Below are positions 2,461 through 61,398 of a DNA stretch of 64,000 nt, piece by piece. Under the pieces are notes generated by a model. That model was not told the DNA's origin. It did no database searches and was given only the letters and a program-made list of their open reading frames with translations. Position numbers and translations under genes: made by a program. The DNA is from a virus (Duplodnaviria; Heunggongvirae; Uroviricota; Caudoviricetes), in IMG/VR virus record IMGVR_UViG_3300028797_000103, positions 87,685 through 151,684 of that record; one strand, 5' to 3'. Within the stretch, counting starts at the first letter, position 1, and the number at the start of each line of letters is the position of its first letter.

Positions 2461-3195
2461 ATGGGAATGAAAATAGCATTTATGAGCGATCTTCACGGGT
2501 CGCTCATAGACTTTAAAGAAAAGGTTGATCTTGTTTGTATAGCCGGTGACATCGTTCCGCTTGAAATACAGAACGATGTGTTCAAATCTATAGCTTGGTT
2601 TAGCGGAAAGTTTGTTCCTTGGGCTGAAGGACTGGATTGTGCTAAAGTTATATTCATAGGTGGAAATCACGACTTCTTTTTACAGAGAATTGTAAACCAA
2701 TATTTTTCTGGAAGAAACATTGACTATTCTTTATATGAAAAAGAAAGCGCGGCGGCTGATGTGATAAAGGATAAATTGATGCTTCCGAAGAAAATTGTTT
2801 ATCTTCAGGATACAGTTTATAACTATAACCACAAAAAGATTTATGGAACACCGTGGATTCCGGAATTGAGCAGATGGGCGTTTTACAAGTCAAGCGAAGA
2901 CCTGAAAGAAGTGTTTGAAAAAATACCGGAAGACGTTGACGTCCTATTAACGCATAGTCCTGGAAAATATGTAAATGACACTGGTGTAAGTTTGCAGGAT
3001 TATAGACTTCCTGAATATGGGTCACAAGAATTGAGCGAAGCTGTATTCAAAAAGAAACCGAAATATTGGTTTTGCGGACACGTTCATTCTGGAAATCACA
3101 TTATGACAGAATATGGAGCAACGACGGTAGCAAACGTAAGCATAAAGGATGAAAACTATAGAGTTAGTTACGTCCCGCTTATAATTGAAATTTAA
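2461..3195 (+). CDS. calcineurin-like metallophosphoesterase
   Basis: Motifs SDLHG, GDIV, GGNHDF, THSPG and GHVHSGNH are present. The start overlaps the previous stop by 1 nt. Confidence 0.6.
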   Translation: MGMKIAFMSDLHGSLIDFKEKVDLVCIAGDIVPLEIQNDVFKSIAWFSGKFVPWAEGLDCAKVIFIGGNHDFFLQRIVNQYFSGRNIDYSLYEKESAAADVIKDKLMLPKKIVYLQDTVYNYNHKKIYGTPWIPELSRWAFYKSSEDLKEVFEKIPEDVDVLLTHSPGKYVNDTGVSLQDYRLPEYGSQELSEAVFKKKPKYWFCGHVHSGNHIMTEYGATTVANVSIKDENYRVSYVPLIIEI

Positions 3196-24824: not shown

Positions 24825-25739
24825 ATGAAAACACAAACGTATACCAAGATTCAGACATTGTATAAAAGGTATGTGCTTAAAGGCGTTGACCTCCCCAACA
24901 AGGATTGGATTGTTTTCCAGAACAAAATCATCCTCGGAGGATATTCCGATGATCACATGAAATATGTGAAGAATCTTCTTTTCGATTGCACGGAGAAGGT
25001 TGACGGAACAAACTCAAAGATTGTATATCTTCCTTCTACCGGAGAATGCTTCTGCGGAGGAAAGACTGATAACGCGGATATTGTTGGGACTGGTCAGAAA
25101 GTGTTTCTCGATGCTGTAATTGAAAGAATCAAACCAATTCTTGCAGAGCTTTTCCCTCCAGAGTCCGCCAAGTTTACTCCTAAAGTGAACGACAAGAATC
25201 AGATTCAGTATTATAACATTTCTTCTGATGTTAATGGAGCCATTCTTTCAGATGTCAATCCAATCGCACCGGGTGTTTATGGTGTAGAGCTTGAGGAGGT
25301 TCCTGTTTACATTTACGGCGAGTTCTACGGAAAGAAGATTCAGAAAGGAGGAAATTACGACAAGGACAACAACCGTTTCGCCGTGTTCGATATTTGTCAG
25401 CAGGGATGGTGGGTTCCTCTCGATATGCTTTCTGAATATACTCAGAAGCTTGGTCTCGATTTGGTTCCTTACATCGGGCAGATGACAATCGACGAAGCCG
25501 AAGAAATTGTGAAGAATGGGTTCAAAACGACGGTTCCGAATGTCAGCAATCCGGATTACCTTGCCGAAGGAATCGTAGCTCGCCCCGTTGTTCCAATCAA
25601 GGATCCTCGTGGTCGCAGGATAATTGTAAAAATAAAGACTTGTGATTACAATGATCTTCGGGTTGCTATAAACAAAGTTGGTGAAGAAGAGTACAGAAAA
25701 TTCGACGCGTGGTATAAAGAAAATGTAGAATCTGTATAA
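24825..25739 (+). CDS. RNA-ligase-like nucleotidyltransferase (ligase superfamily)
   Basis: Motif I KVDGTN, motif III-like YIYGEFYGKKIQ, motif IV/V AEGIVARP and FDI. Confidence 0.55.
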   Translation: MKTQTYTKIQTLYKRYVLKGVDLPNKDWIVFQNKIILGGYSDDHMKYVKNLLFDCTEKVDGTNSKIVYLPSTGECFCGGKTDNADIVGTGQKVFLDAVIERIKPILAELFPPESAKFTPKVNDKNQIQYYNISSDVNGAILSDVNPIAPGVYGVELEEVPVYIYGEFYGKKIQKGGNYDKDNNRFAVFDICQQGWWVPLDMLSEYTQKLGLDLVPYIGQMTIDEAEEIVKNGFKTTVPNVSNPDYLAEGIVARPVVPIKDPRGRRIIVKIKTCDYNDLRVAINKVGEEEYRKFDAWYKENVESV

Positions 25740-35587: not shown

Positions 35588-35666
35588 GCGGACGTATCGC
35601 CACTGTCTTATACACAGTCATTAACAGCGTAATTGGGGTATGGGAGTTCGAGTCTCTCCGTCCGTA
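35588..35666 (+). tRNA. tRNA-like element with anticodon-like hairpin ACTGT-CTTATAC-ACAGT (TAT) but no canonical D-arm
   Basis: Acceptor GCGGACG/CGTCCGT and T-arm GGGAGTTCGAGTCTCTC. Possibly degenerate. Confidence 0.3.
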
Positions 35667-35673
35667 CTAATAT

Positions 35674-35761
35674 CGCGGGTTAGAGAAGTTGGTCATCTCG
35701 CCGGTCTCATAAGCCGGAACTGGACAAAATCTGGTCGGGGGTTCGAATCCTTCACCCGCTA
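35674..35761 (+). tRNA. tRNA-Met(CAT)-like with ~14-nt insertion in variable region
   Basis: The anticodon arm CCGGT-CTCATAA-GCCGG is identical to the tRNA at 42693. D-arm GAGA/TCTC. The variable region is unusually long. Confidence 0.45.
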
Positions 35762-36748
35762 CAAAACAAATCGGTATCCGTCTGGTCGGAAAAGTAAGGT
35801 GAGGTTGGAAGAGTCCTCGCAAAACGTCGATCCGTACGCCTGAAAAAACAAAACAGCACTACCGGTTAGACTTATAGAGAGGTGAAATGATATATCCTCC
35901 GATGTAGCCGAATCACTCTGGGATTGGAAGACAACAGAGCGGCGAACTTCCAGCGAGCAGTGCTCGCCTCGACGTAGTGTCGATATTGCTAGACAGGTCT
36001 TCTCACAAGATGCTCGAAGTGTTATTTATTGGGAGAGAGAGCCCCAAGAAGTCCAAAGGGAACGCGTTTAACTTCAGAACGCAGAGGACCGATGCAAGAC
36101 AGTCACGAAGCGATAACTTTTCACGAGAGTGGCAAATCACAACAAAAATTTTTCTGGTCAAGTTCTATGGGAAAAGTAAAGCCCGTGACGATGCCACAGT
36201 TGATCGGTGTTCGTTCTACCGGATACAGGAACGTTCGTAGCGGATGTACCGTTACGTTGACAGATTAGACAATCAATTGCTGGATACGGGATACGCAGAA
36301 AGAGGAAGACCGCTCGTCATAATGACGGGAATTTCTTTACGGTGGTTATACTTTTACACCTTTTTCGATCTTCTTGCGTTGTGATTTTTTTATGATTAAT
36401 GTTGATTTAAAAATATATGCAGGATTAGCCTCATGGCGAACTTGCGCAAAAACGGTTTACGCCGACCTTAAAGCGCGTCGTGGAGATATGCGTCAATATC
36501 GGTGGCACGGTGCAAGACCACGGATGTACAGCCGCAACAAAGCACTAAGGGAGAGGTAACGTTACTCCTTAAAACTATATTTTTGGAGTAGGCATGTGAA
36601 CGCCGAGGGACCAAGTTTTGAAACGTTAATAGAAACTGGGGAACGGTGTCTGTGGCAAATCGTGAAGGAAGTGAGGGTGCAAATCCCCTACCACATTTAT
36701 TTGTGGTGTCAATAGTAGCGTTTTACACAGATACAAAAATCACCAAAT

Positions 36749-37536: not shown

Positions 37537-38115
37537 GAGGTGTAAGTTTCATCGGGTTGGCGCACGCAGGCGAATTCCTGCGCATACGAAAAGAAAGCGA
37601 ACTCGGTCTAATCCATTGAGAGAATGGTAATATGAATGTCCAATAGCTCAGAGGAAGAGCAGCGGGACCACCGTTTGTCGGGATTTCGAAATTCCCTTGG
37701 GCATCAACACCTATGCGAACACATAAGTTTAGGCGGGCTGGCATTGCGGGTTGCAAACCCTTTGTCGGTTTATGTCGCGTTGAACGATCGGGGATAGTCA
37801 ACGATTCCAAACTGGATGAAAGCTGTTTAATACGGTACCTAAAACTTCAGCTTAGCGTTTAAGTGGATAGTTGCAAAAGTTGCCTCTGACACAGAGCGAA
37901 GAAGTGGGTTCGACTCCCGCACGCGATACAAAATAGCATTTGCAAAAGACGTCGTGCATCTAAAAGCAAGCGATACGCCAAAGTCTACGTACCTTTTGAG
38001 ATGACTACTGCGCAGTTAAAGTCGCTCACCTGTGTGTCGGAACTGGTCTGGGATTGTACCAGAGTTTAAGCTGATGGAAACACTGTATAAGAGATATTGT
38101 TTGTGCTATTATATT

Positions 38116-38187: not shown

Positions 38188-39023
38188 CGAAACTTATTAC
38201 CATATTATCTTTCGGAGAAATGGTTGGATAAAGCTCGCGTGGAAGACGGCAATTGTCCGTAAAAGTTCAGTTAAAGGTTATCTTCCTTCATCAAGACGCT
38301 GAGTGTCGGTCACTCACCCAATCCCACACTGGGAATCCGCAGAATAGGCTTAATTGTGCATCGCTAATATGCGGACGGAATCTTGTAGCACAACATTGGT
38401 TTCGGAGGAAGTTCGAATCTTCCCGTCTTGGCAACAGCAGGCATCGGAAGGAATGCGACGGGATCCCCATTAGAGAGCTGACTGCTCTAGATGGTTCTTA
38501 TTCTAAATGTAGACCTTGAAGCCACGGAGATTGGTAGAAGAATAATGCGAATCTGGCGGTATCTCCACAACGCGTCGTTCGCAAAATGGTTGGGTTTAGT
38601 CGCTGATGTCGCCATAATGTATAAGTCCTGCTGACGTAAAAGTCGTTGATTCCGGCTGACCACTTTGCTGAGTAGGCGTCAAATTGGAGAAGTGATGCTG
38701 AGGGGGCATAGTAAAAGAACCGCGTAGTATGCGAAGAGAAATTCCGTCATTAACTCCAAATATAAGTCGGGGTGGCTAGCAAAGGGAACGGTTCCGGTCC
38801 AATATCATAAAAATCCTTATGAAATCTGAGACAATCACGAGTCGGAATGGGTACAATTTGAAAAAATTGGGTTGCGGAGAAGATAACTCTTCATGCATTT
38901 ACATCGGAAGAACACAGTAGCAAAATTAACCTGAGGTGGGCTCACCCTCTTGAAAAAATAGAGGATAAGCAAGAACAGAGAGTACATAGTTTATTTAAAA
39001 CATCCGATGACCAACATTATAAC

Positions 39024-40165: not shown

Positions 40166-40238
40166 GATCCTGTGAGACATTTGGTAGTCTGGCCGTCCCT
40201 AAAACGGTTTTATGCGGGTTCGATTCCTGTCAGGATCA
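40166..40238 (+). tRNA. putative amber-suppressor tRNA, anticodon CTA (C33 atypical)
   Basis: GATCCTG TG AGAC-ATTTGGTA-GTCT G GCCGT-CCCTAAA-ACGGT TTTAT GCGGG-TTCGATT-CCTGT CAGGATC A. Confidence 0.45.
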
Positions 40239-40245
40239 CAATAAA

Positions 40246-42347: not shown

Positions 42348-42692
42348 ATCCCTAGTGTACCCAGAGCTAGCGTGGACGTGGCTAGGTCGGATGCGATCAT
42401 CAAGTCGCAGACGAAAGAAACCCCATTGATGTAATGGCAGCATACCTGACGCGAATTCAGGAAGTTCGAGTTCGAATCTCGATGGTTTGGGTTCAAAAAA
42501 AAAAACAACGGAACCTTGCTGGTGCGAAAACTTCCGAAAATTCGGCTCTAACCACCAGAAAAAACCGTGAGGACCAAGGGGCACCAACCAGGAAGGCTGC
42601 ATCTTAGTTGTACATACGATGTAGTTGACGTGCTGGGAGAAGTAGATCCATAGGAGCGGAGAAACGTTGTTTTTTAGAAATTTGCGGCGTGG

Positions 42693-42756
42693 AGCAGAGG
42701 TCAGCTTGCCGGTCTCATAAGCCGGAGGTCGTAGGTTCGAATCCTACCGCACGCAA
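42693..42756 (+). tRNA. tRNA-Met(CAT), initiator-like body
   Basis: The sequence TGCGGCG TG GAGC AGAGGTCA GCTT G CCGGT-CTCATAA-GCCGG AGGTC GTAGG-TTCGAAT-CCTAC is closely collinear with E. coli tRNA-fMet. The 3' acceptor strand CGC(A)CGCA carries a one-nucleotide bulge. Confidence 0.6.
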
Positions 42757-43464: not shown

Positions 43465-43550
43465 AGGTCGGTCGCCTAGCGGTTGATGGCATCAGTCTCC
43501 AAAACTGACGAGGTTATTCCTCCACGTGGGTTCGAATCCTACCCGGCCTG
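43465..43550 (+). tRNA. type-II (long variable arm, Ser-like body) tRNA with anticodon CCA (Trp codon), discriminator G73
   Basis: AGGTCGG TC GCCTAGCGGTTGATGGC A TCAGT-CTCCAAA-ACTGA with variable stem GAGG/CCTC, then GTGGG-TTCGAAT-CCTAC CCGGCCT G. The anticodon stem has five perfect base pairs. Confidence 0.55.
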
Positions 43551-43700
43551 CTGTTTTTCTTAGACCGCATCCGAAATGTCGACGTCGGAATGAAATTTAA
43601 AAAACAAGAATTTTCCCTGAATGTCGGTTGTATCTGGGAACGTCGGTTCGGGACGTAATATCCAATAGTCGTGACGTATAAGCCGAACAACGACTAGTCT

Positions 43701-48682: not shown

Positions 48683-49224
48683 CAAATAAAATACAAATTT
48701 AATTTTCATGAAAACAAGAGAAATTGATGAATAATAATTTGGGGACGATATAGAATTTGACTCAAGTTGTCGAACATAATAAGCACGTCGTGCGCCGGTC
48801 ATTTAGCACGTTAATCTCGATGATCAAGAAATAGCTGACAACAGCAACTACAGACTCGCTGCTTAATCAACCGTGTTGGTTAACTTAATTCATCGGAGCC
48901 AAGGCAGCTTCGGAACGAGTGCTTCAGCAGAAGTTTTCTGTCTTCGGTATATTCTGCAACACGAAGCATCATCATTAACCGGAGAGCAGCATCGAAACCC
49001 TTCGTATCGATGTTCGCTAAATCGAAGGAAGGCTGTTCAGGTTTTGTTTCTCTTTTTCTGCCAGCAAATTATAAGAGAAAATAAACGTGTAGAAAGTTGT
49101 GTAAGAGATTTGAACACGGCGGGGCGGTTCCGCCCGTCTCCACAAATTTTGGTTCGTTTTGTCACTTTTGTTAAGTTTTTTGAAAATTTTTGCAAAAATA
49201 CTTTTTTATTTCAAATAAATACAG

Positions 49225-49354: not shown

Positions 49355-50220
49355 AACTGAAACGGTCACTCGTTGATGGTTGAAAAGTTCTTTGAAAATA
49401 AGAAATGGCGGGCTTCCCGTCAATAGGATAACTTGCGAATCCATAAGCAAGTAAAGTCGTCTCGGTGTTCACAAGATTACTGACTCGGCGGAGGAGAAAT
49501 CCTCTCCATGTGAAAGCCATTCCTCAAGCCTTTAGTGGTTTGTAAGTCCGGGCAGGGCTGATAGCTAAAGGTGCAGGCGTTGACCGCGTCTGCTTGGGAG
49601 GTAACTCCGACACAGTGGGAATGCACATGCTCAGAAAGATTGCCAATCTTACAGAGCATGTGAGGAATTTTCTAGTCCTATATGGTATGCCAATACCATG
49701 TATCAGGTGGCACTGGTATCAGAAATGGTAGGATTAACGTGAGAAGTACAGTGAGTAGTCTTGGCAGACAAAAGCAGAAAGGCGTACATACCTAATCCAG
49801 TCAAAAGCTGGTATGGTATTGGAGCACAGCCACGTCTTTCAAACGGTCAAATCTTGTGCGATGATATCTCTTATGGATGAGACAAAACATCTTAAAAGTA
49901 TTAAATCAATCAAGCAAAAGTGCTGTGCACGCTGTGTGACAATGCAGTTATCCACCTGTGATATGGTGGCTACCGAAAGTACCGCAAGGAAATCGTAGAA
50001 GCGAAAGAAGTATGCAACTAATAGGAGGGTCGCGCCTTCGAATCTCGCAAGGAGTTAGGGCAGAAACAAGTACCTTATATAACACAGTGTAGTGGTTGCG
50101 GAACCTAAATCCGTCTGCATCTTGCCTATCTCTAGAAGTAGGGATGTGTTCTAGGTCCGAAAAGGAACGAAAATGGCAAGCGATGTGGGTCACGACTCAG
50201 CCCAACTCATCAGAAAATTA
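49355..50220 (+). ncRNA. candidate structured non-coding RNA (promoter-to-terminator transcript; local resemblance to RNase P RNA conserved motifs)
   Basis: No ORF over 80 aa in any frame. The motifs GTAAGTCCGGGCAGGG, GGTAACTCC and ACAGTGGGAATG...CAGAAAGATTGCC resemble RNase P CR-I and the P8-P10 region. The transcript is bounded by a promoter box and a terminator. Confidence 0.3.
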
Positions 50221-50248
50221 AGACCGCTCAATCGAGCGGTCTTTTTTC
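50221..50248. terminator. rho-independent terminator (bidirectional)
   Basis: agaccgctc-aatc-gagcggtct followed by TTTTTT. Confidence 0.7.
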
Positions 50249-50273
50249 GTTTATATACGTTTGTAAAGTTTTA

Positions 50274-51362
50274 TTATCCGAGAGAGTCTTCTTTCATAAT
50301 CTTCATTATATATTCTTTGGACTTCTCGTCAGTGTCATAGCAAACTAATCCGGATGTTTCTCCGTGCATGTATTTGCTGTACCATACATAGAATGTGCAG
50401 GGCTTTCCTTTATATTCGCAGGAATATTTTCCCGGTTTAACAAACCCAGTTGTGTTGTATAGATTTTCTTCAAATCTCTTTTCTATTGAGAACACGTCGA
50501 AGTTCATATCCATTTCGAGTTCGCCATCTGCATAGCAGAACGCCGGTCTTACTGTAGGAACACCCTGAGTTTCATCGTAGTCTCCGAATATTACATACGC
50601 CTTTTGTTTCGGTTCCTGTTTTTCTGCTTCTATTCTTTCTGCTTGTTCGCGGCGACGCTTTGCTATTATGTTCATTGCAAATTTCTTCGCTGCTGCTGGA
50701 GAAAGATCCGGTCTTTTCTTACAAACCCAGTTGTATGTATCATAATAGTCGACGCCGAATTCTTCATTAAGATTTTCTTCTATTGATTCTCTCTTTGCTT
50801 TGTCTTTGCTCCACTTTGCGACTATCCTCTTTGCATACTGTATCTGTTCGCGCCTTGAAAGGTTACGTCTGTGTTTGGCTACCCAATCGATAGTATCGTT
50901 AAGATCATATCCGAACTTTTCGTTCATTGTTGATTCTGATTCTTGGAGCTGTTCATCGTAATCAAAGTCATCAACAATTTCTCCGGTTTCGTCGTAATAA
51001 TGATCAATCGTTGAATCATCATCAAGAAGTCTGATGAAAGGAATATCGGTGTGATTTATCTTTCCCTGTTTTCCGTCGCCCCTTCTTGCGTAACCTTCTT
51101 CTATCTCAAGTTTATGTATAAAGTTCCAGAAGTCATGACACTTATTTTCTATTGCACCGGAAAGTTCTTTTCCGCCACGTTCTCCATTGAATATGTCCAT
51201 AACAGAATCAATGGCTTTCTGTAGATTAAGTATTCTTGATTTTATTTCTTTTGGTTCGAGATACCAATCGTATTCACCGTCTGGAAGTTTTATTCCTCTT
51301 GTTTTTGAGAAATCGATATCTTCGTTCATCTGTTTTCCAGTTTTGTACAAAATAGTTTTCAT
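50274..51362 (-). CDS. hypothetical protein
   Basis: 362-aa ORF, the only minus-strand gene in the right half of the window. Confidence 0.45.
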   Translation of the reverse strand: MKTILYKTGKQMNEDIDFSKTRGIKLPDGEYDWYLEPKEIKSRILNLQKAIDSVMDIFNGERGGKELSGAIENKCHDFWNFIHKLEIEEGYARRGDGKQGKINHTDIPFIRLLDDDSTIDHYYDETGEIVDDFDYDEQLQESESTMNEKFGYDLNDTIDWVAKHRRNLSRREQIQYAKRIVAKWSKDKAKRESIEENLNEEFGVDYYDTYNWVCKKRPDLSPAAAKKFAMNIIAKRRREQAERIEAEKQEPKQKAYVIFGDYDETQGVPTVRPAFCYADGELEMDMNFDVFSIEKRFEENLYNTTGFVKPGKYSCEYKGKPCTFYVWYSKYMHGETSGLVCYDTDEKSKEYIMKIMKEDSLG

Positions 51363-51460
51363 ATACTAATTTAACATTTTTATATTTATTTGAAAAATAC
51401 CGGTCTAAAACAATTTTGCGTGTTACCGTCAGATATATTTTTTATTCTGAATAAAAAGTA

Positions 51461-51473
51461 GTATATTTGCAAA
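51461..51473 (+). promoter_or_regulatory. conserved promoter box gTATATTTGcaaa
   Basis: Located upstream of the tRNA at 51618. Confidence 0.5.
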
Positions 51474-51617
51474 GCGATAAATATAGTATATCTCCCAAAA
51501 GGATATTGCGAGAGAGTGGACAATTCCATCTGTATCCAATTAAATACAGGATAGTGAGTATGTAGCTACGAAACAAAATGAACCTCGCACTCGCGGAATA
51601 TTTGAGGGGGATGCTCC

Positions 51618-51702
51618 GTCGGGGTGGCCGAGTGGCTAGGCAACGGTCTGCAAAACCGTATGGGTGTAAAAGCCTACGCAGGTTCGAATCCTGTCCCCGA
51701 CT
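51618..51702 (+). tRNA. type-II (long variable arm, Ser-like body) tRNA with anticodon GCA (Cys codons), discriminator U73
   Basis: GTCGGGG TG GCC GAGTGGCTA GGC A ACGGT-CTGCAAA-ACCGT with a long variable arm, then GCAGG-TTCGAAT-CCTGT CCCCGAC T. The anticodon stem is identical to tRNA-Ser(GCT) at 57101. Confidence 0.55.
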
Positions 51703-51735
51703 CTAAGCAAACTAACAGTTTGCTTTTTTAGTGTT

Positions 51736-52890
51736 ATGATGAAACTACTTAAAGTTCTCATAGTTATAGCATTGATGCTGTTTGGACAAGTTGACGCTTA
51801 TTCACAAGACGGAAATGATATGTCGTTGACGGTTGAGTTCGTTATAAATTCTAGCGAGTTCGTGAAGAATAAAAACTATGACAAATTCATAGAAGAATTT
51901 GTTCCTTATATAAATTTACATGCGGACGAAATAGACAACATTCTTCTTGTTGGGTCTGCGTCTCCAGAAGGAAACAGAAATAATAATGTGCGTCTTGCAA
52001 ACTTAAGGGCTGAAAAAATATATTCCTACGTAAACGAATATATTCCTAAGAGAAAAATCATAGTTAACAACGACTATAATTTGTTTTTGGAGAAGACGGG
52101 GTTGGATGAGAGCGATTATAAAAAACTTAGGGCAACATATATTGAAGTTCATTTGAAATCGCAGAAGAAAGACGAACCAAAACTGGATACCGTATATATA
52201 GAAAAGATTGATACTGTATATAAGGAAAAAGAAACCATAAACAACTACTATAAAGAAACAGTTACAGGTTTACACAGTAAACCAATTATTTCAATTTATA
52301 ACAATCTTCTTGAGGATCTTTTAATAAGACCAAACATTGGAATAGAGGTTTACTTTCATAAGATGTCTTTCTTTGTTGAGGGGTCATTTTCTCATCGTGA
52401 ACTTTTTGGGAAGACATATAATATAGATTTGTGGAACACTGGATTTAGAAAATATTTCAACGATGACTATGATAAAGTGTTCGTGGAATTATATGGAAAT
52501 GCCGGATATTTTGATACAGATTTGTTTACAAAGATCGGAAAGATTGGCATAATATATGGCGGAGGACTTGGAGTTGGGTATGTGTTCAATCTTTGTCCGC
52601 ACTGGAAAATTTCTCCAGTTGTTAGAATTGGGTTGTTCGAAAGGATTTATTTTGCAGATTATTATCGCTCAGAACAGGGTTCAATAAATATATTTTTCGG
52701 AAATTATAGCAACGGGAACATAAATAATGAGATTGGCGATCAGTCTGGTGAAACAACAAGCAGAGTCGTCGAAACAGATAAAATAATAACTAAAGAATTT
52801 TTTGAAAACAGCAATAAAGCATTTTACATTGGTCCGACATATGTTGGAGTTGTATTGAAACGGGACTTTTGTATAGGCAAGAAAAAATAA
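51736..52890 (+). CDS. outer-membrane-type protein with OmpA-like motif
   Basis: Signal peptide MMKLLKVLIVIALMLFGQVDA. The motif GSASPEGNRNNNVRLANLRAEKI resembles the OmpA C-terminal domain signature. Confidence 0.4.
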   Translation: MMKLLKVLIVIALMLFGQVDAYSQDGNDMSLTVEFVINSSEFVKNKNYDKFIEEFVPYINLHADEIDNILLVGSASPEGNRNNNVRLANLRAEKIYSYVNEYIPKRKIIVNNDYNLFLEKTGLDESDYKKLRATYIEVHLKSQKKDEPKLDTVYIEKIDTVYKEKETINNYYKETVTGLHSKPIISIYNNLLEDLLIRPNIGIEVYFHKMSFFVEGSFSHRELFGKTYNIDLWNTGFRKYFNDDYDKVFVELYGNAGYFDTDLFTKIGKIGIIYGGGLGVGYVFNLCPHWKISPVVRIGLFERIYFADYYRSEQGSINIFFGNYSNGNINNEIGDQSGETTSRVVETDKIITKEFFENSNKAFYIGPTYVGVVLKRDFCIGKKK

Positions 52891-52901
52891 AGAACAAAAC
52901 T

Positions 52902-54614
52902 ATGAAGAAAAAATTTCTATGGGCAATCGCGTGTATACTAGCGTTGCTTGTTTCATGTGTTAAATTTGAGGACACATTTAACTACAAAACTCAAACAAAT
53001 TCGAATGGCGAATACGCTATAGTGTTTAGCAATCGCTCCAAAATGACAAAGGCATCGGTATCCAGCGTAGCTGGGACAGGATATGACACGTTCAGCTTAT
53101 TTGCTTGGAACTCTATCAACGACACAATTATGAAACCATATTCTGTCGTTGCTGACGGGTTGAATTCATATCAGTACGAGGATGTGACCGGACAGGAACT
53201 CAAATACTTTAAAAGAGTGGCAGATTGGTATGATTTCATTGGAATAATCCCAACCGATCATAACATGACACTCTCAAACGGTGAAGTTAAAGTCGAAGGA
53301 GTAAAATCTTTTGTTGTCGACGACAAGAGGGCTGAGAAGGCTGTTAATCTTACGGACACTCTTTATTGGAGCGCTGGTCTTTCTGCTGATTCTCCAGAAG
53401 AGTTTTTAACAGCTTATAAGAGAGTTGAAAAGGCTGACTATGGTAACGTTGTCAATCTTCCTTTCAACCATCAGAACGCTCTTATATTTTTAGGATTCAG
53501 CTCAGATAAGACTGACACAAGAATCATTGATTACGCTCCGGGCACGCCAGATGTTCCAGAGGTTCCTGCTGTAAATGACACTGTGGACACTTGGGTAAAC
53601 CTTAAGAGAAGCTATAGTGCTGTTGGTTCTTCAACGAAATTGAAAGGTCCGGGAGAAACTACATATACAAACGCAGCCGCACTTCCAGACAATCTCGTTG
53701 CAGAAATCAAGTCATATTATTCAATCAACGGCGGAACACCGGGAGATTATGACCTTCATCTTGGAAACACAGTATGGCCAAGTAGCGAAATCAAACAATT
53801 GAGAGTTGTTAAGGCTATTCCAGACGAGTACAAAATAACTTTCGAAATGTATAACTCTGGAGAAACTATGGATTTCTTCAACGGCTGGAAGTATCTTCAG
53901 GACAACGGTTATGATATTCAGCCGGGAACGACTGGTGGAAAGCCTGACGTTTGGAATTACGTTTTGATTGACGCGTTTGTAAACGGTTCGGCTTACACTG
54001 TTGTTGGACTCAACTGTGGAGACTTAAATGCAGTTCCTCAGTATACAATCAATGTAACTCCGGGAGCACCGGCAATTCCGGGAACACCAGGATTGGAAGG
54101 AGTCAGAGTTTTTAGCGCAGATTCTCTTGGTGTAAACAATGTTCCAACGGATACGCTATATTGTATACACGTTCCTCATACAGTAACGGCTGATGCAACG
54201 GTTAGCGCAAGCGGTACTGTTCTTTCAAACAGAGTTACAACTGATGACGTTATACAGTTCTCGCTTCCTTCAACAACAACCTTGAGCGAAACTCCAGTTT
54301 GGTCCTCAAGCACTTTCTATGCTCTTCCGGGTGATACAAATTTCAATTTCATAGTTGTGAAACTCTCGTATGTATATAATGGTGTAACCGCATACGATGT
54401 TAGAGTTCCTATCCATCTTCCAGACGGGGGTCTTCAGCCGGGCAAATATTACAAGTACGAGCTTTATATTACAAGTACGAGTAATGGAACAAATGATCCT
54501 GCTGAGGCAACTGATGAAAAGGACGAGATTATAATCGAAGACAATCCTGTAATTCAGGTAAGACTTGTAGAAAACGGTTATACTCAGGGCGACGAAAGAA
54601 GATTTACAATCTAA
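52902..54614 (+). CDS. lipoprotein (cell-surface, Bacteroides-like)
   Basis: MKKKFLWAIACILALLVSC is a lipoprotein signal. The start was trimmed from track ORF 52869. Confidence 0.45.
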   Translation: MKKKFLWAIACILALLVSCVKFEDTFNYKTQTNSNGEYAIVFSNRSKMTKASVSSVAGTGYDTFSLFAWNSINDTIMKPYSVVADGLNSYQYEDVTGQELKYFKRVADWYDFIGIIPTDHNMTLSNGEVKVEGVKSFVVDDKRAEKAVNLTDTLYWSAGLSADSPEEFLTAYKRVEKADYGNVVNLPFNHQNALIFLGFSSDKTDTRIIDYAPGTPDVPEVPAVNDTVDTWVNLKRSYSAVGSSTKLKGPGETTYTNAAALPDNLVAEIKSYYSINGGTPGDYDLHLGNTVWPSSEIKQLRVVKAIPDEYKITFEMYNSGETMDFFNGWKYLQDNGYDIQPGTTGGKPDVWNYVLIDAFVNGSAYTVVGLNCGDLNAVPQYTINVTPGAPAIPGTPGLEGVRVFSADSLGVNNVPTDTLYCIHVPHTVTADATVSASGTVLSNRVTTDDVIQFSLPSTTTLSETPVWSSSTFYALPGDTNFNFIVVKLSYVYNGVTAYDVRVPIHLPDGGLQPGKYYKYELYITSTSNGTNDPAEATDEKDEIIIEDNPVIQVRLVENGYTQGDERRFTI

Positions 54615-57100: not shown

Positions 57101-57189
57101 GGAGGCTTACCCAAGTGGCTGAAGGGGACGGTTTGCTAAACCGTTAGTGCGTTAATAGCGCAGCGGGCGTTCGAATCGCCCAGCCTCCG
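57101..57189 (+). tRNA. tRNA-Ser(GCT)
   Basis: GGAGGCT TA CCC AAGTGGCTGAAGGGG A CGGTT-TGCTAAA-ACCGT with a long variable arm, then GGGCG-TTCGAAT-CGCCC AGCCTCC G. Confidence 0.75.
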
Positions 57190-57865: not shown

Positions 57866-58477
57866 ATGATAACTAAATTTACAGGCGACGGTCTTTTCTT
57901 TACGTCTGATACACACTTCAACCACAAGAAGATTCTTGATTTCACAAAGCGTCCGTATTCCAGCATAGAGGAACACGATGAGGCTCTTATTGAGAACTGG
58001 AATTCTGTTGTCGGATTAAACGACACCGTGTTCCATCTCGGAGATTTCTGCTTCGGTAATCCTTCAAAGGTTGAGGAAATCGCAAAGCGGTTGAATGGAC
58101 ACATAATTCTTATTCGTGGGAACCACGATGACAAAAACCTTCAGAAAAGTTTGTGGGGGCTGTTTGAAGACGTGCTGTATCAGGCTAGGATAAGCGTTGA
58201 TGGACGAAGCGTCTATTTGAATCATTTTCCGTTTCTCTGTTTTGCTCACGGAGATCCGAAGATTTATAGGGATGCGTACCATTACAATCTTTTTGGACAC
58301 GTTCACTCCGGAACACAATCTACGTCGTCCGATGTAAGCAGACTGCGTTATCTTTATCCTACACAGTATGATGTCGGTGTTGACAACAACAACATGACTC
58401 CTGTATCTTGGGAGTGGATTGACAATCATCTTCAGGAAAAGATTAAAAAGTATCTGGAGGAAAACGAGAATAACTAA
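57866..58477 (+). CDS. calcineurin-like metallophosphoesterase (third copy in window)
   Basis: SDTHFNH, HLGDF, IRGNHDD, AHGD and GHVHSG. Confidence 0.6.
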   Translation: MITKFTGDGLFFTSDTHFNHKKILDFTKRPYSSIEEHDEALIENWNSVVGLNDTVFHLGDFCFGNPSKVEEIAKRLNGHIILIRGNHDDKNLQKSLWGLFEDVLYQARISVDGRSVYLNHFPFLCFAHGDPKIYRDAYHYNLFGHVHSGTQSTSSDVSRLRYLYPTQYDVGVDNNNMTPVSWEWIDNHLQEKIKKYLEENENN

Positions 58478-58815: not shown

Positions 58816-58828
58816 TATATTTGCAAAA
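58816..58828 (+). promoter_or_regulatory. conserved promoter box gTATATTTGcaaa
   Basis: Located upstream of the polB fragment. Confidence 0.5.
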
Positions 58829-60353
58829 AAATTACAAGTCTTACATGATAATCAATACAGAAATAAAGGATCTGACAAAAAACGGAATGCCGGTGCTGGA
58901 CAGTTATGGTCGTTGCAAACGGTTTCTTTTAATTTCATATGTTGATAAAAACGGAACCATTAAAAAATTCGTCTGGGTGATACCTGAGGAATTTATGTAT
59001 CAGTGGAAATATGCAACAAGAAACGACGTTCCGGATCCTGTATACAAGTCTTGGGATTTTAAAAACGTTGTTAAGGAACCAATAGTTGGAAACTTTTCAG
59101 AGCAGCGTGTACATGAAATGATGCTTGATTTGGTTGCATCAAATCCAGATAATCCTGAACTGAAAGAAATGTTCGAGCTGAACATACCAGAAACGACATA
59201 TGCTGATATTGAGGTAGATGTTGGAGAAGACGGGTTCCCGCTAGCGGAAGAAGCAGCTAACACTGTAAACACTTGTTCATTCGTAAGGGGAAACGATGCT
59301 TGGTGCGTTGGTCTTGCGCAGTTGACAAACGATGACATCGAGTGGATTCAGAAAGAAATTGACAAGCACGTTTCCAAACTTGGAGTAAAATATAATTTCC
59401 ATTATAGATATCATGAAAATGAGCTCAGTCTGTTGAATGATATTTTCCAGAATTTCATAGGTACATCAGAGTGTGTTACTGGGTGGAACTGGTTTGGATA
59501 TGACTGGATATATTTGACAAACAGATCAAATCTTTATGGAATGGATATAAGTTATCTATCGCCAACAAAGTCATTTACAACTTACAGACCGATGGATGCA
59601 AAAGGAAAAGATGATAACATCAGGGTTCCTATGCACAGGGGGATGTACGATTATCTAGAAATTTACAGGAAGTGGGACAAGAGAATAACTCCAAAGATTA
59701 GCAACAAGCTTGACTGGGTAGCAGAGACTGTGCTTGGAATCAAGAAGGTAGCCCATCAGCTCGGATTCCGTGACATGTGGAGACAGCAGAAAAAGGAATA
59801 TGTTTTCTATAATGTAATCGATAGCATTCTTGTGCGGGAGATTGATAAGAAACTGAAGACATCATCAACATTTTTCGGTCTCGCAAACATCATGCACACT
59901 CCGGCTTTGACCGCATTCAGTTCTACGAAGAGTATCGAAATTGTTCAGTCTGAATATCTTTACAGAGAAAAAAGAATATTCCCGAAGGCGAAACAGAACA
60001 ATAACGTTCAGGAGTATGAGGGCGCATTTGTGTATGAACCCATTCCGGGTGTTTATATTCAGGTTTGGACTGTTGACTACGCGTCTCTTTATCCTACAAC
60101 TATGAGGCAATTTAATATGTCTCCTGACACATTTATAAAGAAAGACAAGAATCATAGGAGACAGCCAGATGAGATAGTTTGTGTCAACGGTTCTGTTTAT
60201 ACTAAAAAATTCCGTGGATTCATTCCAAAAATATTGGATGACTTCTACGCTAAGAGAAAGTCGTATAAAAAGAAGATGATTGAGGCTGAAGAAACCAAGT
60301 ACGAATTGCAGGAAATATTAAAAAGCAGAAAAGAAAAAGCAACAGTCGCATAA
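58821..60353 (+). CDS. family-B DNA polymerase, N-terminal fragment (3'-5' exonuclease region through polymerase motif A); gene is split/truncated
   Basis: Exo-I-like YADIEVD and motif A VDYASLYPTTM. The ORF stops ~100 aa after motif A, and motifs B and C are absent. The listed start 58821 probably over-extends, since the promoter box lies at 58816-58828. Confidence 0.55.
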   Translation: MQKNYKSYMIINTEIKDLTKNGMPVLDSYGRCKRFLLISYVDKNGTIKKFVWVIPEEFMYQWKYATRNDVPDPVYKSWDFKNVVKEPIVGNFSEQRVHEMMLDLVASNPDNPELKEMFELNIPETTYADIEVDVGEDGFPLAEEAANTVNTCSFVRGNDAWCVGLAQLTNDDIEWIQKEIDKHVSKLGVKYNFHYRYHENELSLLNDIFQNFIGTSECVTGWNWFGYDWIYLTNRSNLYGMDISYLSPTKSFTTYRPMDAKGKDDNIRVPMHRGMYDYLEIYRKWDKRITPKISNKLDWVAETVLGIKKVAHQLGFRDMWRQQKKEYVFYNVIDSILVREIDKKLKTSSTFFGLANIMHTPALTAFSSTKSIEIVQSEYLYREKRIFPKAKQNNNVQEYEGAFVYEPIPGVYIQVWTVDYASLYPTTMRQFNMSPDTFIKKDKNHRRQPDEIVCVNGSVYTKKFRGFIPKILDDFYAKRKSYKKKMIEAEETKYELQEILKSRKEKATVA

Positions 60354-60688: not shown

Positions 60689-61398
60689 GCGCTCGTGGCG
60701 GAATGGTAGACGCAAGGGACTTAAATAAATTGAGTGCATACCGCAGGACGCTTAATGCGTGATAGATAAGATAAACAACCCAATTGGGAAGTAGCCTGTG
60801 GACGCTGGGAAACCAGTTATGTAGAACCTCCCTAAGTCGGCGAAACCTTAGCTAGTTAATGTTCAAAGAAGCGTTGAAGTAGTTGTGAAACATTGGAAGT
60901 ATAGTACCAATGGGCTGAATTCTACGGAGTGGAGAAGATTAACTTTGGTGGCAACGCCGAGCAATGTGATGGTGGTTGTAGACGGGAGCTTGTCAAAAAG
61001 GCAGGCGTAATGGTGAATTAACACTCGGAAAGAGCCGTGACCATTTAAGCAGTGTGTAGAGATCATCGAAACATTATGGAGTAGAGTAAGCCAGATATGA
61101 GTAAGTGCAGAGCTTAACGTCTGGTTGAAACAGGAGGAACCTAAGTTGAAATTATTGTATGAATGTTCCCAGTGAACCCGGAACCGAATAAACAGGCTGT
61201 GCAACTCAGCAAACCTCTTCATACAGTACCTTGCAAGATTTCAATATGGTTAAGACATGATCCAGACCACGAACAGACGTGCAGCCATAATAGTCGGGGC
61301 AGTTAAACCGAATTAGCGTGTCTGGCAGCGAAAGTTGTAGTGGTACGAAAATCCCTCGACCCGAAAGGGTCGTGTGGGTTCGACTCCCACCGGGCGCA
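60689..61398 (+). tRNA. tRNA-Leu(TAA) interrupted in the anticodon loop by a ~625-nt group-I-type intron (exons 60689-60722 and 61348-61398)
   Basis: 5' exon GCGCTCG TG GCGGAATGGTAGACGC A AGGGA CTT. 3' exon AAAA TCCCT CGACCC-GAAA-GGGTCG T GTGGG-TTCGACT-CCCAC CGGGCGC A. The intron begins AAATAAATTGAG, like the cyanobacterial tRNA-Leu intron, and ends in G. Confidence 0.7.
60723..61347 (+). other. putative group I self-splicing intron inserted between U34 and A35 of tRNA-Leu(UAA)
   Basis: The insert sits at the canonical tRNA-Leu(UAA) position with a U before the 5' splice site and a terminal G. No convincing internal ORF is present on the sense strand. Confidence 0.55.

Follow-up and report, generated by a model that had tools for sequence, protein, structure and literature searches.

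We describe a tRNA gene at positions 51618-51702 (+ strand) of a 64,000-nucleotide stretch of DNA from a virus of the Caudoviricetes (positions 87,685 to 151,684 of the IMG/VR record IMGVR_UViG_3300028797_000103; hereafter the window), in which the anticodon and discriminator base of a cysteine tRNA occur together with a long, paired variable arm. In textbooks, the long variable arms of bacteria are restricted to the Leu, Ser, Tyr and selenocysteine (Sec) tRNAs. The best reading of the sequence is that of a type-I phage tRNA-Cys body, type I having a variable loop of 4-6 nt, into whose variable loop a stable hairpin appears to have been inserted. We consider it probable that the product is a working phage tRNA-Cys, which would be charged by the host cysteinyl-tRNA synthetase (CysRS) through U73 and the GCA anticodon.

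Structure of the gene and its type-I body

The gene was called as tRNA-Cys(gca) at 51618-51703 on the + strand by ARAGORN, and 51618-51702 matched the full Rfam model RF00005 (positions 1-71) with 58.4 bits and an E-value of 1.5e-12. In the Rfam alignment, a 15-nt insert was placed in the variable region and CUGCAAA fell on the consensus anticodon loop. The original prediction of a type-II tRNA with a GCA anticodon and U73 was confirmed by both programs and by direct reading, and the alignment bore out where it had placed the anticodon loop. The minimum free energy (MFE) fold was a cloverleaf with a 5-bp extra stem (-35 kcal/mol, z=-2.3). A complete tRNA-Cys(GCA) gene of 85 nt, with class-II architecture and a 7/5 acceptor/T branch, was therefore assigned from ARAGORN, Rfam, the MFE fold and a covariance model of type-I Cys tRNAs described below.

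The 5' strand of the acceptor stem (GTCGGGG, 51618-51624) pairs with the 3' strand (CCCCGAC, 51695-51701) at 7/7 positions, beginning with G1:C72, U2:A71 and C3:G70, and is followed by the discriminator U73 (51702, read from the sequence). U8 and G9 lie between the acceptor and D stems. The D arm (51627-51641, GCC-GAGTGGCTA-GGC) contains G13.A22 and G18G19, and the anticodon arm (51643-51659, ACGGT-CUGCAAA-ACCGT) carries A36A37A38 and the anticodon GCA at 51650-51652, as positioned by the Rfam alignment and invariant in the alignment of relatives (A3) presented below. The variable region (51660-51677; ATGGGTGTAAAAGCCTAC, 18 nt) folds in the MFE structure as A-UGGGU-GUAAAA-GCCUA-C, that is a 5-bp stem including two G.U pairs with one unpaired base on each side, and it falls in class II, which is defined by a paired variable region of more than 10 nt. 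The T arm (51678-51694, GCAGG-TTCGAAT-CCTGT, from the Rfam alignment) includes G49.U65. The set of tertiary interactions is complete (U8, A14, G18G19, U33, a purine at 37, T54-T55-C56 and A58), G15:C48 is present, and an 8/4 branch is impossible, as T8 cannot pair with T65 when read from the sequence. CCA is not encoded at the 3' end of the gene. A terminator-like hairpin followed by a T-run (AAGCAAACTAACAGTTTGCTT, 51705-51735, + strand), found in a consensus scan as a pattern match only, lies 3 nt past it.

The enlarged D loop of class-II tRNAs (insert 20a/20b, as in bacterial Ser, Leu and Tyr) is absent from the gene. Its 8-26 region is 18 nt long, as in type-I Cys tRNAs; in phage tRNAs for Ser, Leu and Tyr a length of 20 nt is the most frequent, and both Ser genes of the window have it. 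The D arm itself, TGGCCGAGTGGCTAGGCA, is standard in short-armed phage tRNA-Cys. When IMG/VR was scanned for this motif joined to the Cys loop (GARTGGYTAGGCA-N5-CTGCAAA), 104 contigs matched, giving 63 unique Cys tRNAs, all with U73 (63/63), of which 60 were type I and three were long-armed (the window gene and those of loci L025 and L386). In loci picked without that motif, the D arm was carried by six Cys tRNAs, one CUA tRNA and one Ile tRNA, and by 0/129 unique Ser tRNAs. The D arm had originally been described as Ser-like, and this description did not hold: it is the D arm of an ordinary type-I phage tRNA-Cys.

Other parts of the gene point to the same body. The T arm is also found in the type-I Cys tRNAs of loci L347 and L389, and bases 7-41 show 91% identity to the 74-nt tRNA-Cys of mycobacteriophage LeBron (gp112, NC_014461). 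This type-I tRNA shares with the window gene the D arm TGGCCGAGTGGCTAGGCA, U73, GCA within a CUGCAAA loop, the 7/5 branch and G15:C48, and tRNA-Cys of its type differs from it in having a variable loop of 4-6 nt in place of the 18-nt paired arm. To build a covariance model, 18 type-I phage Cys tRNAs were used from loci that had been fetched for a different purpose. With this model, 51618-51702 was at the top of the tRNA island at 62.6 bits, tied with tRNA-Phe and with the arm scored as an insertion, while the Ser genes of the window scored 33.6 and 31.6 bits. The 3' end of the variable region retains the YTAC/CCAC ending of type-I Cys loops, suggesting the insertion of a hairpin into the variable loop of a type-I tRNA.

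Cysteine and serine identity

Bacterial identity sets for Cys, Ser and Trp were taken from Table 1 of PMC9976931. Both major parts of the Cys set, U73 (51702) and G34 C35 A36 (51650-51652), are present, and the major CysRS determinants are indeed joined to a long variable arm in one gene, as had been predicted. Among the minor Cys elements, C3:G70 is present and position 2:71 is U:A, not G2:C71. The Ser acceptor signature, for which G73 and G2:C71 were used with A3:U70 added for its 81% conservation in phage Ser, is absent from the gene, which has U73, U2:A71 and C3:G70; both Ser genes of the window start with GGAGG and carry G73. Among 155 unique phage tRNA-Ser, G2:C71 occurs in 94%, A3:U70 in 81%, G73 in 78%, U73 in 17% and G1-C72, G2-C71 and A3-U70 together in 75%. 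The corresponding values are 18%, 23%, 2%, 94% and 3% for 65 unique long-armed Cys tRNAs, and 46%, 11%, 0%, 99% and 1% for 150 unique type-I Cys tRNAs. In the window gene, both discriminator and acceptor stem are of Cys type and not of Ser or Leu type. Long-armed tRNAs of other isotypes in phage arrays also keep their own discriminator (U in 13/14 Thr; A in Val, Met, Lys, Glu and Gln) and not the G that is commonest in Ser.

The tRNA would be transcribed within the + strand tRNA island, with the terminator-like hairpin behind it, and trimmed by host processing enzymes; CCA would be added after transcription, because the gene encodes none. The host CysRS would then cysteinylate it, guided by U73 and G34-C35-A36 and, as a minor element, by C3:G70, and the tRNA would decode UGU and UGC as cysteine, as the only Cys tRNA of a phage set covering 20 amino acids. 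As a class I synthetase, CysRS binds the tRNA on the face opposite the variable region, and it should therefore tolerate the arm. Cysteinylation of a long-armed tRNA is feasible because there is a precedent: experiments have shown that the long-armed selC* tRNA-Cys with U73 accepts cysteine and works in translation (Mukai et al., NAR 2017, PMC5389517). The selC* tRNA-Cys resembles the window gene in its long variable arm, U73 and GCA (or UCA) anticodon. It is otherwise tRNA-Sec-like, with 8/4 branches and longer stems, and it is found in anaerobic bacteria beside sel genes, where some need a dedicated CysRS*. The window gene has a 7/5 branch, a 5-bp anticodon stem and a place in a phage array, and none of the 8/4, 8/5 or 9/4 branches by which tRNA-Sec-like molecules are recognised.

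Several features weigh against a purely cysteine identity. G2:C71, a listed bacterial Cys determinant, is absent, although it is present in only 46% of type-I phage Cys tRNAs. The geometry of the arm, read from the secondary structure, is that of Ser: one unpaired 5' base, 5 bp and one unpaired 3' base, where the Ser arms of phage arrays have one, 5-7 bp and one, the Leu arms one, 3-5 bp and two, and the Tyr arms one, 3 bp and three. With a covariance model of 28 phage Ser tRNAs the gene scored 74.3 bits, third behind the true Ser genes (81.1 and 77.8 bits) and followed by Asn (65.5), Leu (63.6) and Trp (62.1); raw bits of the Cys model (71 positions) cannot be compared with those of the Ser model (88 positions), and only ranks within each model were used. 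C72, R4:Y69, C11:G24 and G30:C40, which are bacterial Ser determinants according to PMC9976931, are all present, U73 occurs in 17% of phage tRNA-Ser, and U73 is accepted by the seryl-tRNA synthetase (SerRS) in allo-tRNAs (PMC5389517).

These features could be explained by a dual identity, in which the tRNA is charged mainly by CysRS but measurably by SerRS through its Ser-type arm, so that some UGY codons would be read as serine in a low-level, possibly tolerated mistranslation. We consider this unlikely. It would be helped by the indifference of SerRS to the anticodon and by the observation that, within loci, long-armed Cys tRNAs are slightly nearer to Ser (mean identity 0.62) than to other isotypes (0.45-0.57). 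However, the gene is without G2:C71 and A3:U70, which are kept in 94% and 81% of phage Ser, and without the 20a/20b insert, its 8-26 region being 18 nt as against 20 nt in the Ser genes of the window. Most long-armed phage Cys tRNAs, moreover, have short arms of Tyr type (3 bp, three unpaired 3' bases) with no Ser mimicry, and selection for SerRS binding therefore does not account for the long arm as such. Compared with bacterial tRNA-Ser, the window gene is alike in its arm (1/5 bp/1), C11:G24, R4:Y69 and C72, and it differs in U73 (G73 in Ser), U2:A71 (G2:C71), C3:G70 (A3:U70), the missing 20a/20b insert and the anticodon. The original view of a hybrid with Ser therefore stands at the level of architecture, in the Ser-type arm and the rank with the Ser model, and fails for the D arm and for descent.

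The allo-tRNAs and the nematode nev-tRNAs also join a long variable arm to the anticodon of a class-I isotype. Their identity elements are those of Ser or Leu, as is the amino acid that they receive, which makes them missense or nonsense suppressors, and the allo-tRNAs have 8/4 or 9/3 branches. The window tRNA-Cys, in contrast, has the identity elements of its own anticodon and is without the Ser acceptor signature.

Long-armed tRNA-Cys in phages and the lineage of the window gene

Long-armed Cys tRNAs were searched for with the exact pattern GGTCTGCAAAACC-N(16-30)-GGTTCGAATCC, for which all counts are lower bounds. It matched 73 IMG/VR contigs, and each locus held an 82-91 nt tRNA-Cys(gca), nearly always as the sole Cys gene of the fetched stretch; type-I spacing was found in at least 120 viral contigs. 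Among loci picked for another reason, 7/35 Cys tRNAs were long-armed. In cellular genomes (one per species, 185,579 species) the pattern was present in only 15 contigs, mostly dense tRNA arrays in metagenome bins. The acceptor pairs of 62 unique long-armed Cys tRNAs were 98-100% canonical with four to six pair types at each, drawing on all four Watson-Crick pair types, and U73 was present in 58/62. One of these genes is in a cultured phage: CcrColossus, a Caulobacter phage, has an 87-nt tRNA-Cys (NC_019406, 132216-132302) which resembles the window gene in its 7/5 branch, GCA, U73, paired arm and location in a phage tRNA array. It is annotated plainly as tRNA-Cys, and no comment on it is made in the genome paper.

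In most long-armed phage Cys tRNAs the D loop is of class-II type (GAGTGGTTGAAAGG) and the arm is short and of Tyr type (3-4 bp stem, tetraloop, three unpaired 3' bases), whereas in the window gene a type-I D arm goes with a 5-bp arm flanked by a single unpaired base per side. Because the major family differs in both D loop and arm from the window type, long arms on Cys tRNAs have at least two origins, and the window type probably arose separately from the major family. Remoulding of a tRNA-Tyr was considered as a source of long-armed Cys tRNAs. It was rejected for the window gene, which has a type-I Cys body, and is still open for the major family, whose arm geometry is Tyr-like but whose core identity within the same locus is highest to Ser (0.62; Tyr 0.55). 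GNRA loops were not specific as a marker of these extra arms, being equally common in Leu and Ser arms.

The lineage of the window gene was defined by U73, GCA, the D arm of type-I Cys (GARTGGYTAGGCA) and a variable arm that is paired and at least 15 nt long, and was found in three viral contigs and 29 metagenome contigs; the window gene has all four features. The members at L456, L455, L444, L449 and L450/L468 share its acceptor stem, anticodon arm and T arm and differ in their variable arms, which are 16-20 nt long in these loci and 15-20 nt across alignment A3. In L456, a contig of 314,739 bp, the tRNA order of the window is kept (Cys, Ile, Ser(gct), then His and Leu(caa)). In alignment A3, which holds 11 sequences, 96.6% of cells were paired compared with 78% in shuffles, and 14 pairs changed on both sides, with compensatory changes in 4/5 variable-arm pairs and in every helix, the acceptor included. 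Since the arm varies among close relatives with compensatory changes in four of its five pairs, the extra helix is under selection, even as its sequence drifts. The same holds for the Cys identity elements, because U73 is kept in 94% of long-armed Cys tRNAs (n=65) despite varied acceptor pairs, and both U73 and GCA are invariant in the lineage.

Two further arrangements of Cys genes were observed elsewhere. On one metagenome contig, two different long-armed Cys tRNAs are in tandem (L466, 2397-2577), and on a contig binned as Mollicutes a long-armed Cys tRNA lies next to a type-I one (L194, 6937-7109).

A role outside translation, as a decoy or sponge for a host tRNA-targeting nuclease, as a regulatory RNA or as a decaying pseudo-tRNA, is in our view highly unlikely. 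Such roles are in keeping with the proposal that phage tRNAs counter tRNA-depleting defences (PMC10264068), with the RNA ligase and phosphoesterases encoded in the window and with several degenerate tRNA-like sequences in its tRNA island. However, all helices of the tRNA-Cys are intact and U8, A14, G18G19, U33, A37, TTCGAAT and U73 are conserved, the gene fills the single Cys slot of a complete set, and its lineage is conserved with compensatory changes throughout.

The tRNA island, recoding and the role of the arm

The window contains 31 tRNA genes called by ARAGORN between 34.6 and 61.5 kb, all on the + strand, and the set spans all 20 amino acids, with Cys and Trp each present only as a long-armed gene. 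Considering the 31 calls and one further tRNA found by Rfam only, which reads CAT, 51618-51702 is the sole Cys tRNA of the window. The G+C content is about 39%, and coding is dense under the standard code. Phage-type genes include a family B DNA polymerase and structural repeat proteins of PHROG, and the window also encodes an RNA ligase, metallophosphoesterases, ClpP, DnaJ, dUTPase, DNA methylases and a radical-SAM enzyme. No Pfam match to CysRS, SerRS or any other aminoacyl-tRNA synthetase was found among the 40 open reading frames (ORFs) scanned, and the few remaining ORFs, of 115-170 amino acids, are too short to encode one.

Downstream of the tRNA-Cys lies a gene with a DUF3575 domain and a weak, sub-threshold OmpA match, which hints at a host among the Bacteroidota. 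When synteny was followed through this gene, the two relatives found (54% and 37% amino-acid identity) both had a tRNA-Ala upstream instead, and the order of tRNA genes is therefore fluid. A BLAST search of positions 50000-53500 against the INPHARED phages gave no match, and hence no annotated close relative, and when the window ORFs were compared by tblastn with all fetched loci, none of the contigs with a long-armed Cys tRNA proved to be a close phage relative.

Other elements of the island were also recorded. A phage tmRNA lies within it at 48741-49145 (+ strand; Rfam RF00023, 86.9 bits) with no ARAGORN call. The tRNA found by Rfam only (CAT, 42684-42755, + strand) has an initiator-like D arm and an irregular acceptor stem. 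The tRNA-Ser(GCT) at 57101-57189 (+ strand) was called by ARAGORN and scored 77.8 bits with the Ser model, yet it is absent from the Rfam hits at the gathering threshold, as is a tRNA-Gln at 39023. Weak tRNA-like covariance hits of 18-29 bits at 42420-42487, 37637-37704, 35588-35666 and 61318-61398 are possibly decayed tRNA genes. A CUA-anticodon tRNA at 40166-40239 (+ strand), labelled Pyl by ARAGORN, has a CCCUAAA loop with C at position 33 and looks like an amber suppressor; TAG is the stop of just 2/43 window ORFs. Besides the exonuclease domain, the family B DNA polymerase ORF at 58821-60353 (+ strand) contains no more of the polymerase domain than profile positions 22-145 out of 453, and the polymerase may be split, given that tRNA-His and tRNA-Leu genes follow the partial ORF.

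It had been proposed that the tRNA-Cys derives from the neighbouring tRNA-Ser(GCT). The anticodon stem ACGGT/ACCGT is the same in both genes, as noted then, and the loops are CTGCAAA and TTGCTAA. This 5-bp stem is the only part that is fully identical and is frequent among phage Cys tRNAs; identity is down to 59% in the T arm and 43% in the acceptor stem. In an alignment with the variable arm removed, core identity to tRNA-Ser(GCT) was only 66%, alongside 70% to Gly(tcc), 69% to Trp and 66% to Phe in the same window. The gene is therefore not descended from tRNA-Ser(GCT), because its core is no closer to it than to Gly, Trp and Phe.

A coherent strategy of recoding or misreading of the UGN box, resting on the tRNA-Cys and a long-armed tRNA with a CCA anticodon, had also been suggested, and it is not borne out by the other long-armed tRNAs. 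The 87-nt long-armed tRNA-Trp(CCA) at 43465-43551 (+ strand) has the bacterial Trp identity set A1-U72, G2-C71, G3-C70 and G73. Long-armed tRNA-Trp(CCA) was found in at least 119 IMG/VR contigs, and among the matches listed almost all had G73 and an A:U or G.U first pair. A third long-armed tRNA of the window (89 nt, 35674-35762, + strand) reads CAT. Read by eye from an alignment, it shows the initiator hallmarks C1xU72 mismatch, A11:U24, G29-C41/G30-C40 and A73, and a class-II initiator-like tRNA would be unusual. Long arms are scattered over at least 15 isotypes in phage tRNA arrays (loci L001-L337), with examples on Thr(UGU), Lys, Asn, Met, Val, His, Ile, Arg, Glu, Gln, Asp and Pro; Ala, Gly and Phe tRNAs are almost never long-armed.

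The window ORFs are intact under the standard code, with stops TAA 35, TGA 6 and TAG 2 in 43 ORFs, and 1.5% of their 14,837 codons are for Cys. For this phage UGY must stand for cysteine, because the CxxxCxxC motif of its radical-SAM enzyme is written TGC/TGT/TGC. No UCA-anticodon tRNA is among the 31 ARAGORN calls of the window. UCA variants on class-II scaffolds do exist elsewhere, a point that the original prediction had asked to be checked: 8 viral contigs of IMG/VR (L211-L218) match a UCA pattern, and in 7/8 of them ARAGORN calls a class-II UCA tRNA of 93-95 nt. L212 and L215 have A1-U72 and G73 (Trp-like), L214, L216 and L218 have G1-C72 and U73 (Cys-like), and these tRNAs may decode opal codons from scaffolds of the same kinds.

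That the gene is a recent derivative of tRNA-Ser(GCT), changed at position 36, still a SerRS substrate and part, with the long-armed tRNA(CCA), of deliberate UGN-box recoding or misreading, is the least probable of the explanations and is contradicted here, as the shared anticodon stem, the long arms of both tRNAs and the UCA scaffolds of other viral contigs are set against a core identity at background level, D and T arms that belong to type-I Cys with the Cys tRNAs of other phages as nearest relatives, a Trp gene with its own bacterial identity set, a third long-armed tRNA reading AUG, genes whose reading needs no in-frame stop codons, and the lack of a UCA tRNA in the window. There is no sign of recoding in the window, and the oddity of the tRNA-Cys is limited to the extra hairpin in its variable region.

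What the hairpin does can be discussed in terms of the enzymes that act on tRNAs. Our leading guess is that the arm changes the way in which the phage tRNA is recognised by nucleases or modification enzymes that bind tRNAs. More broadly, and tentatively, the long arm is possibly an adaptive, recurrent, phage-specific change to normal tRNAs, which would leave aminoacylation intact and alter recognition by other tRNA-binding proteins. It could, for example, allow escape from tRNA-cleaving defence nucleases of the host, or serve as a self mark against a phage enzyme that attacks host tRNAs. If so, the fast-evolving, always paired arm of the window lineage would be the trace of that conflict.

T4 counters anticodon nucleases with a tRNA repair kit. 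The window encodes an RNA ligase (PF09414) and two calcineurin-like phosphoesterases (24825-25739, 2461-3195 and 57866-58477, all on the + strand), and these could be a similar, T4-like kit; they fit a conflict over tRNAs and are no proof of it. Nuclease evasion has been proposed earlier for changes in the anticodon loop of phage tRNAs (PMC10264068).

In the full-text literature searched, outside which much subscription literature lies, 7/5 long-armed Cys or Trp tRNAs of phages were undescribed, and only papers on selC*, allo-tRNAs, nev-tRNAs and phage tRNAs in general were found. Long-armed Cys genes are nevertheless already present, unremarked, in GenBank phage records such as that of CcrColossus. 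Phages rich in tRNA genes commonly carry long-armed tRNAs for Cys and Trp (dozens to hundreds of contigs), and the Cys form is nearly absent from cellular genomes. If the arm is neutral, a class-II Cys or Trp tRNA in a phage annotation is no signal of recoding. If it is adaptive, it would provide a new and experimentally easy handle on the conflict between phage and host over tRNAs, and a natural set of substrates for CysRS and the tryptophanyl-tRNA synthetase with an orthogonal-looking structural tag.

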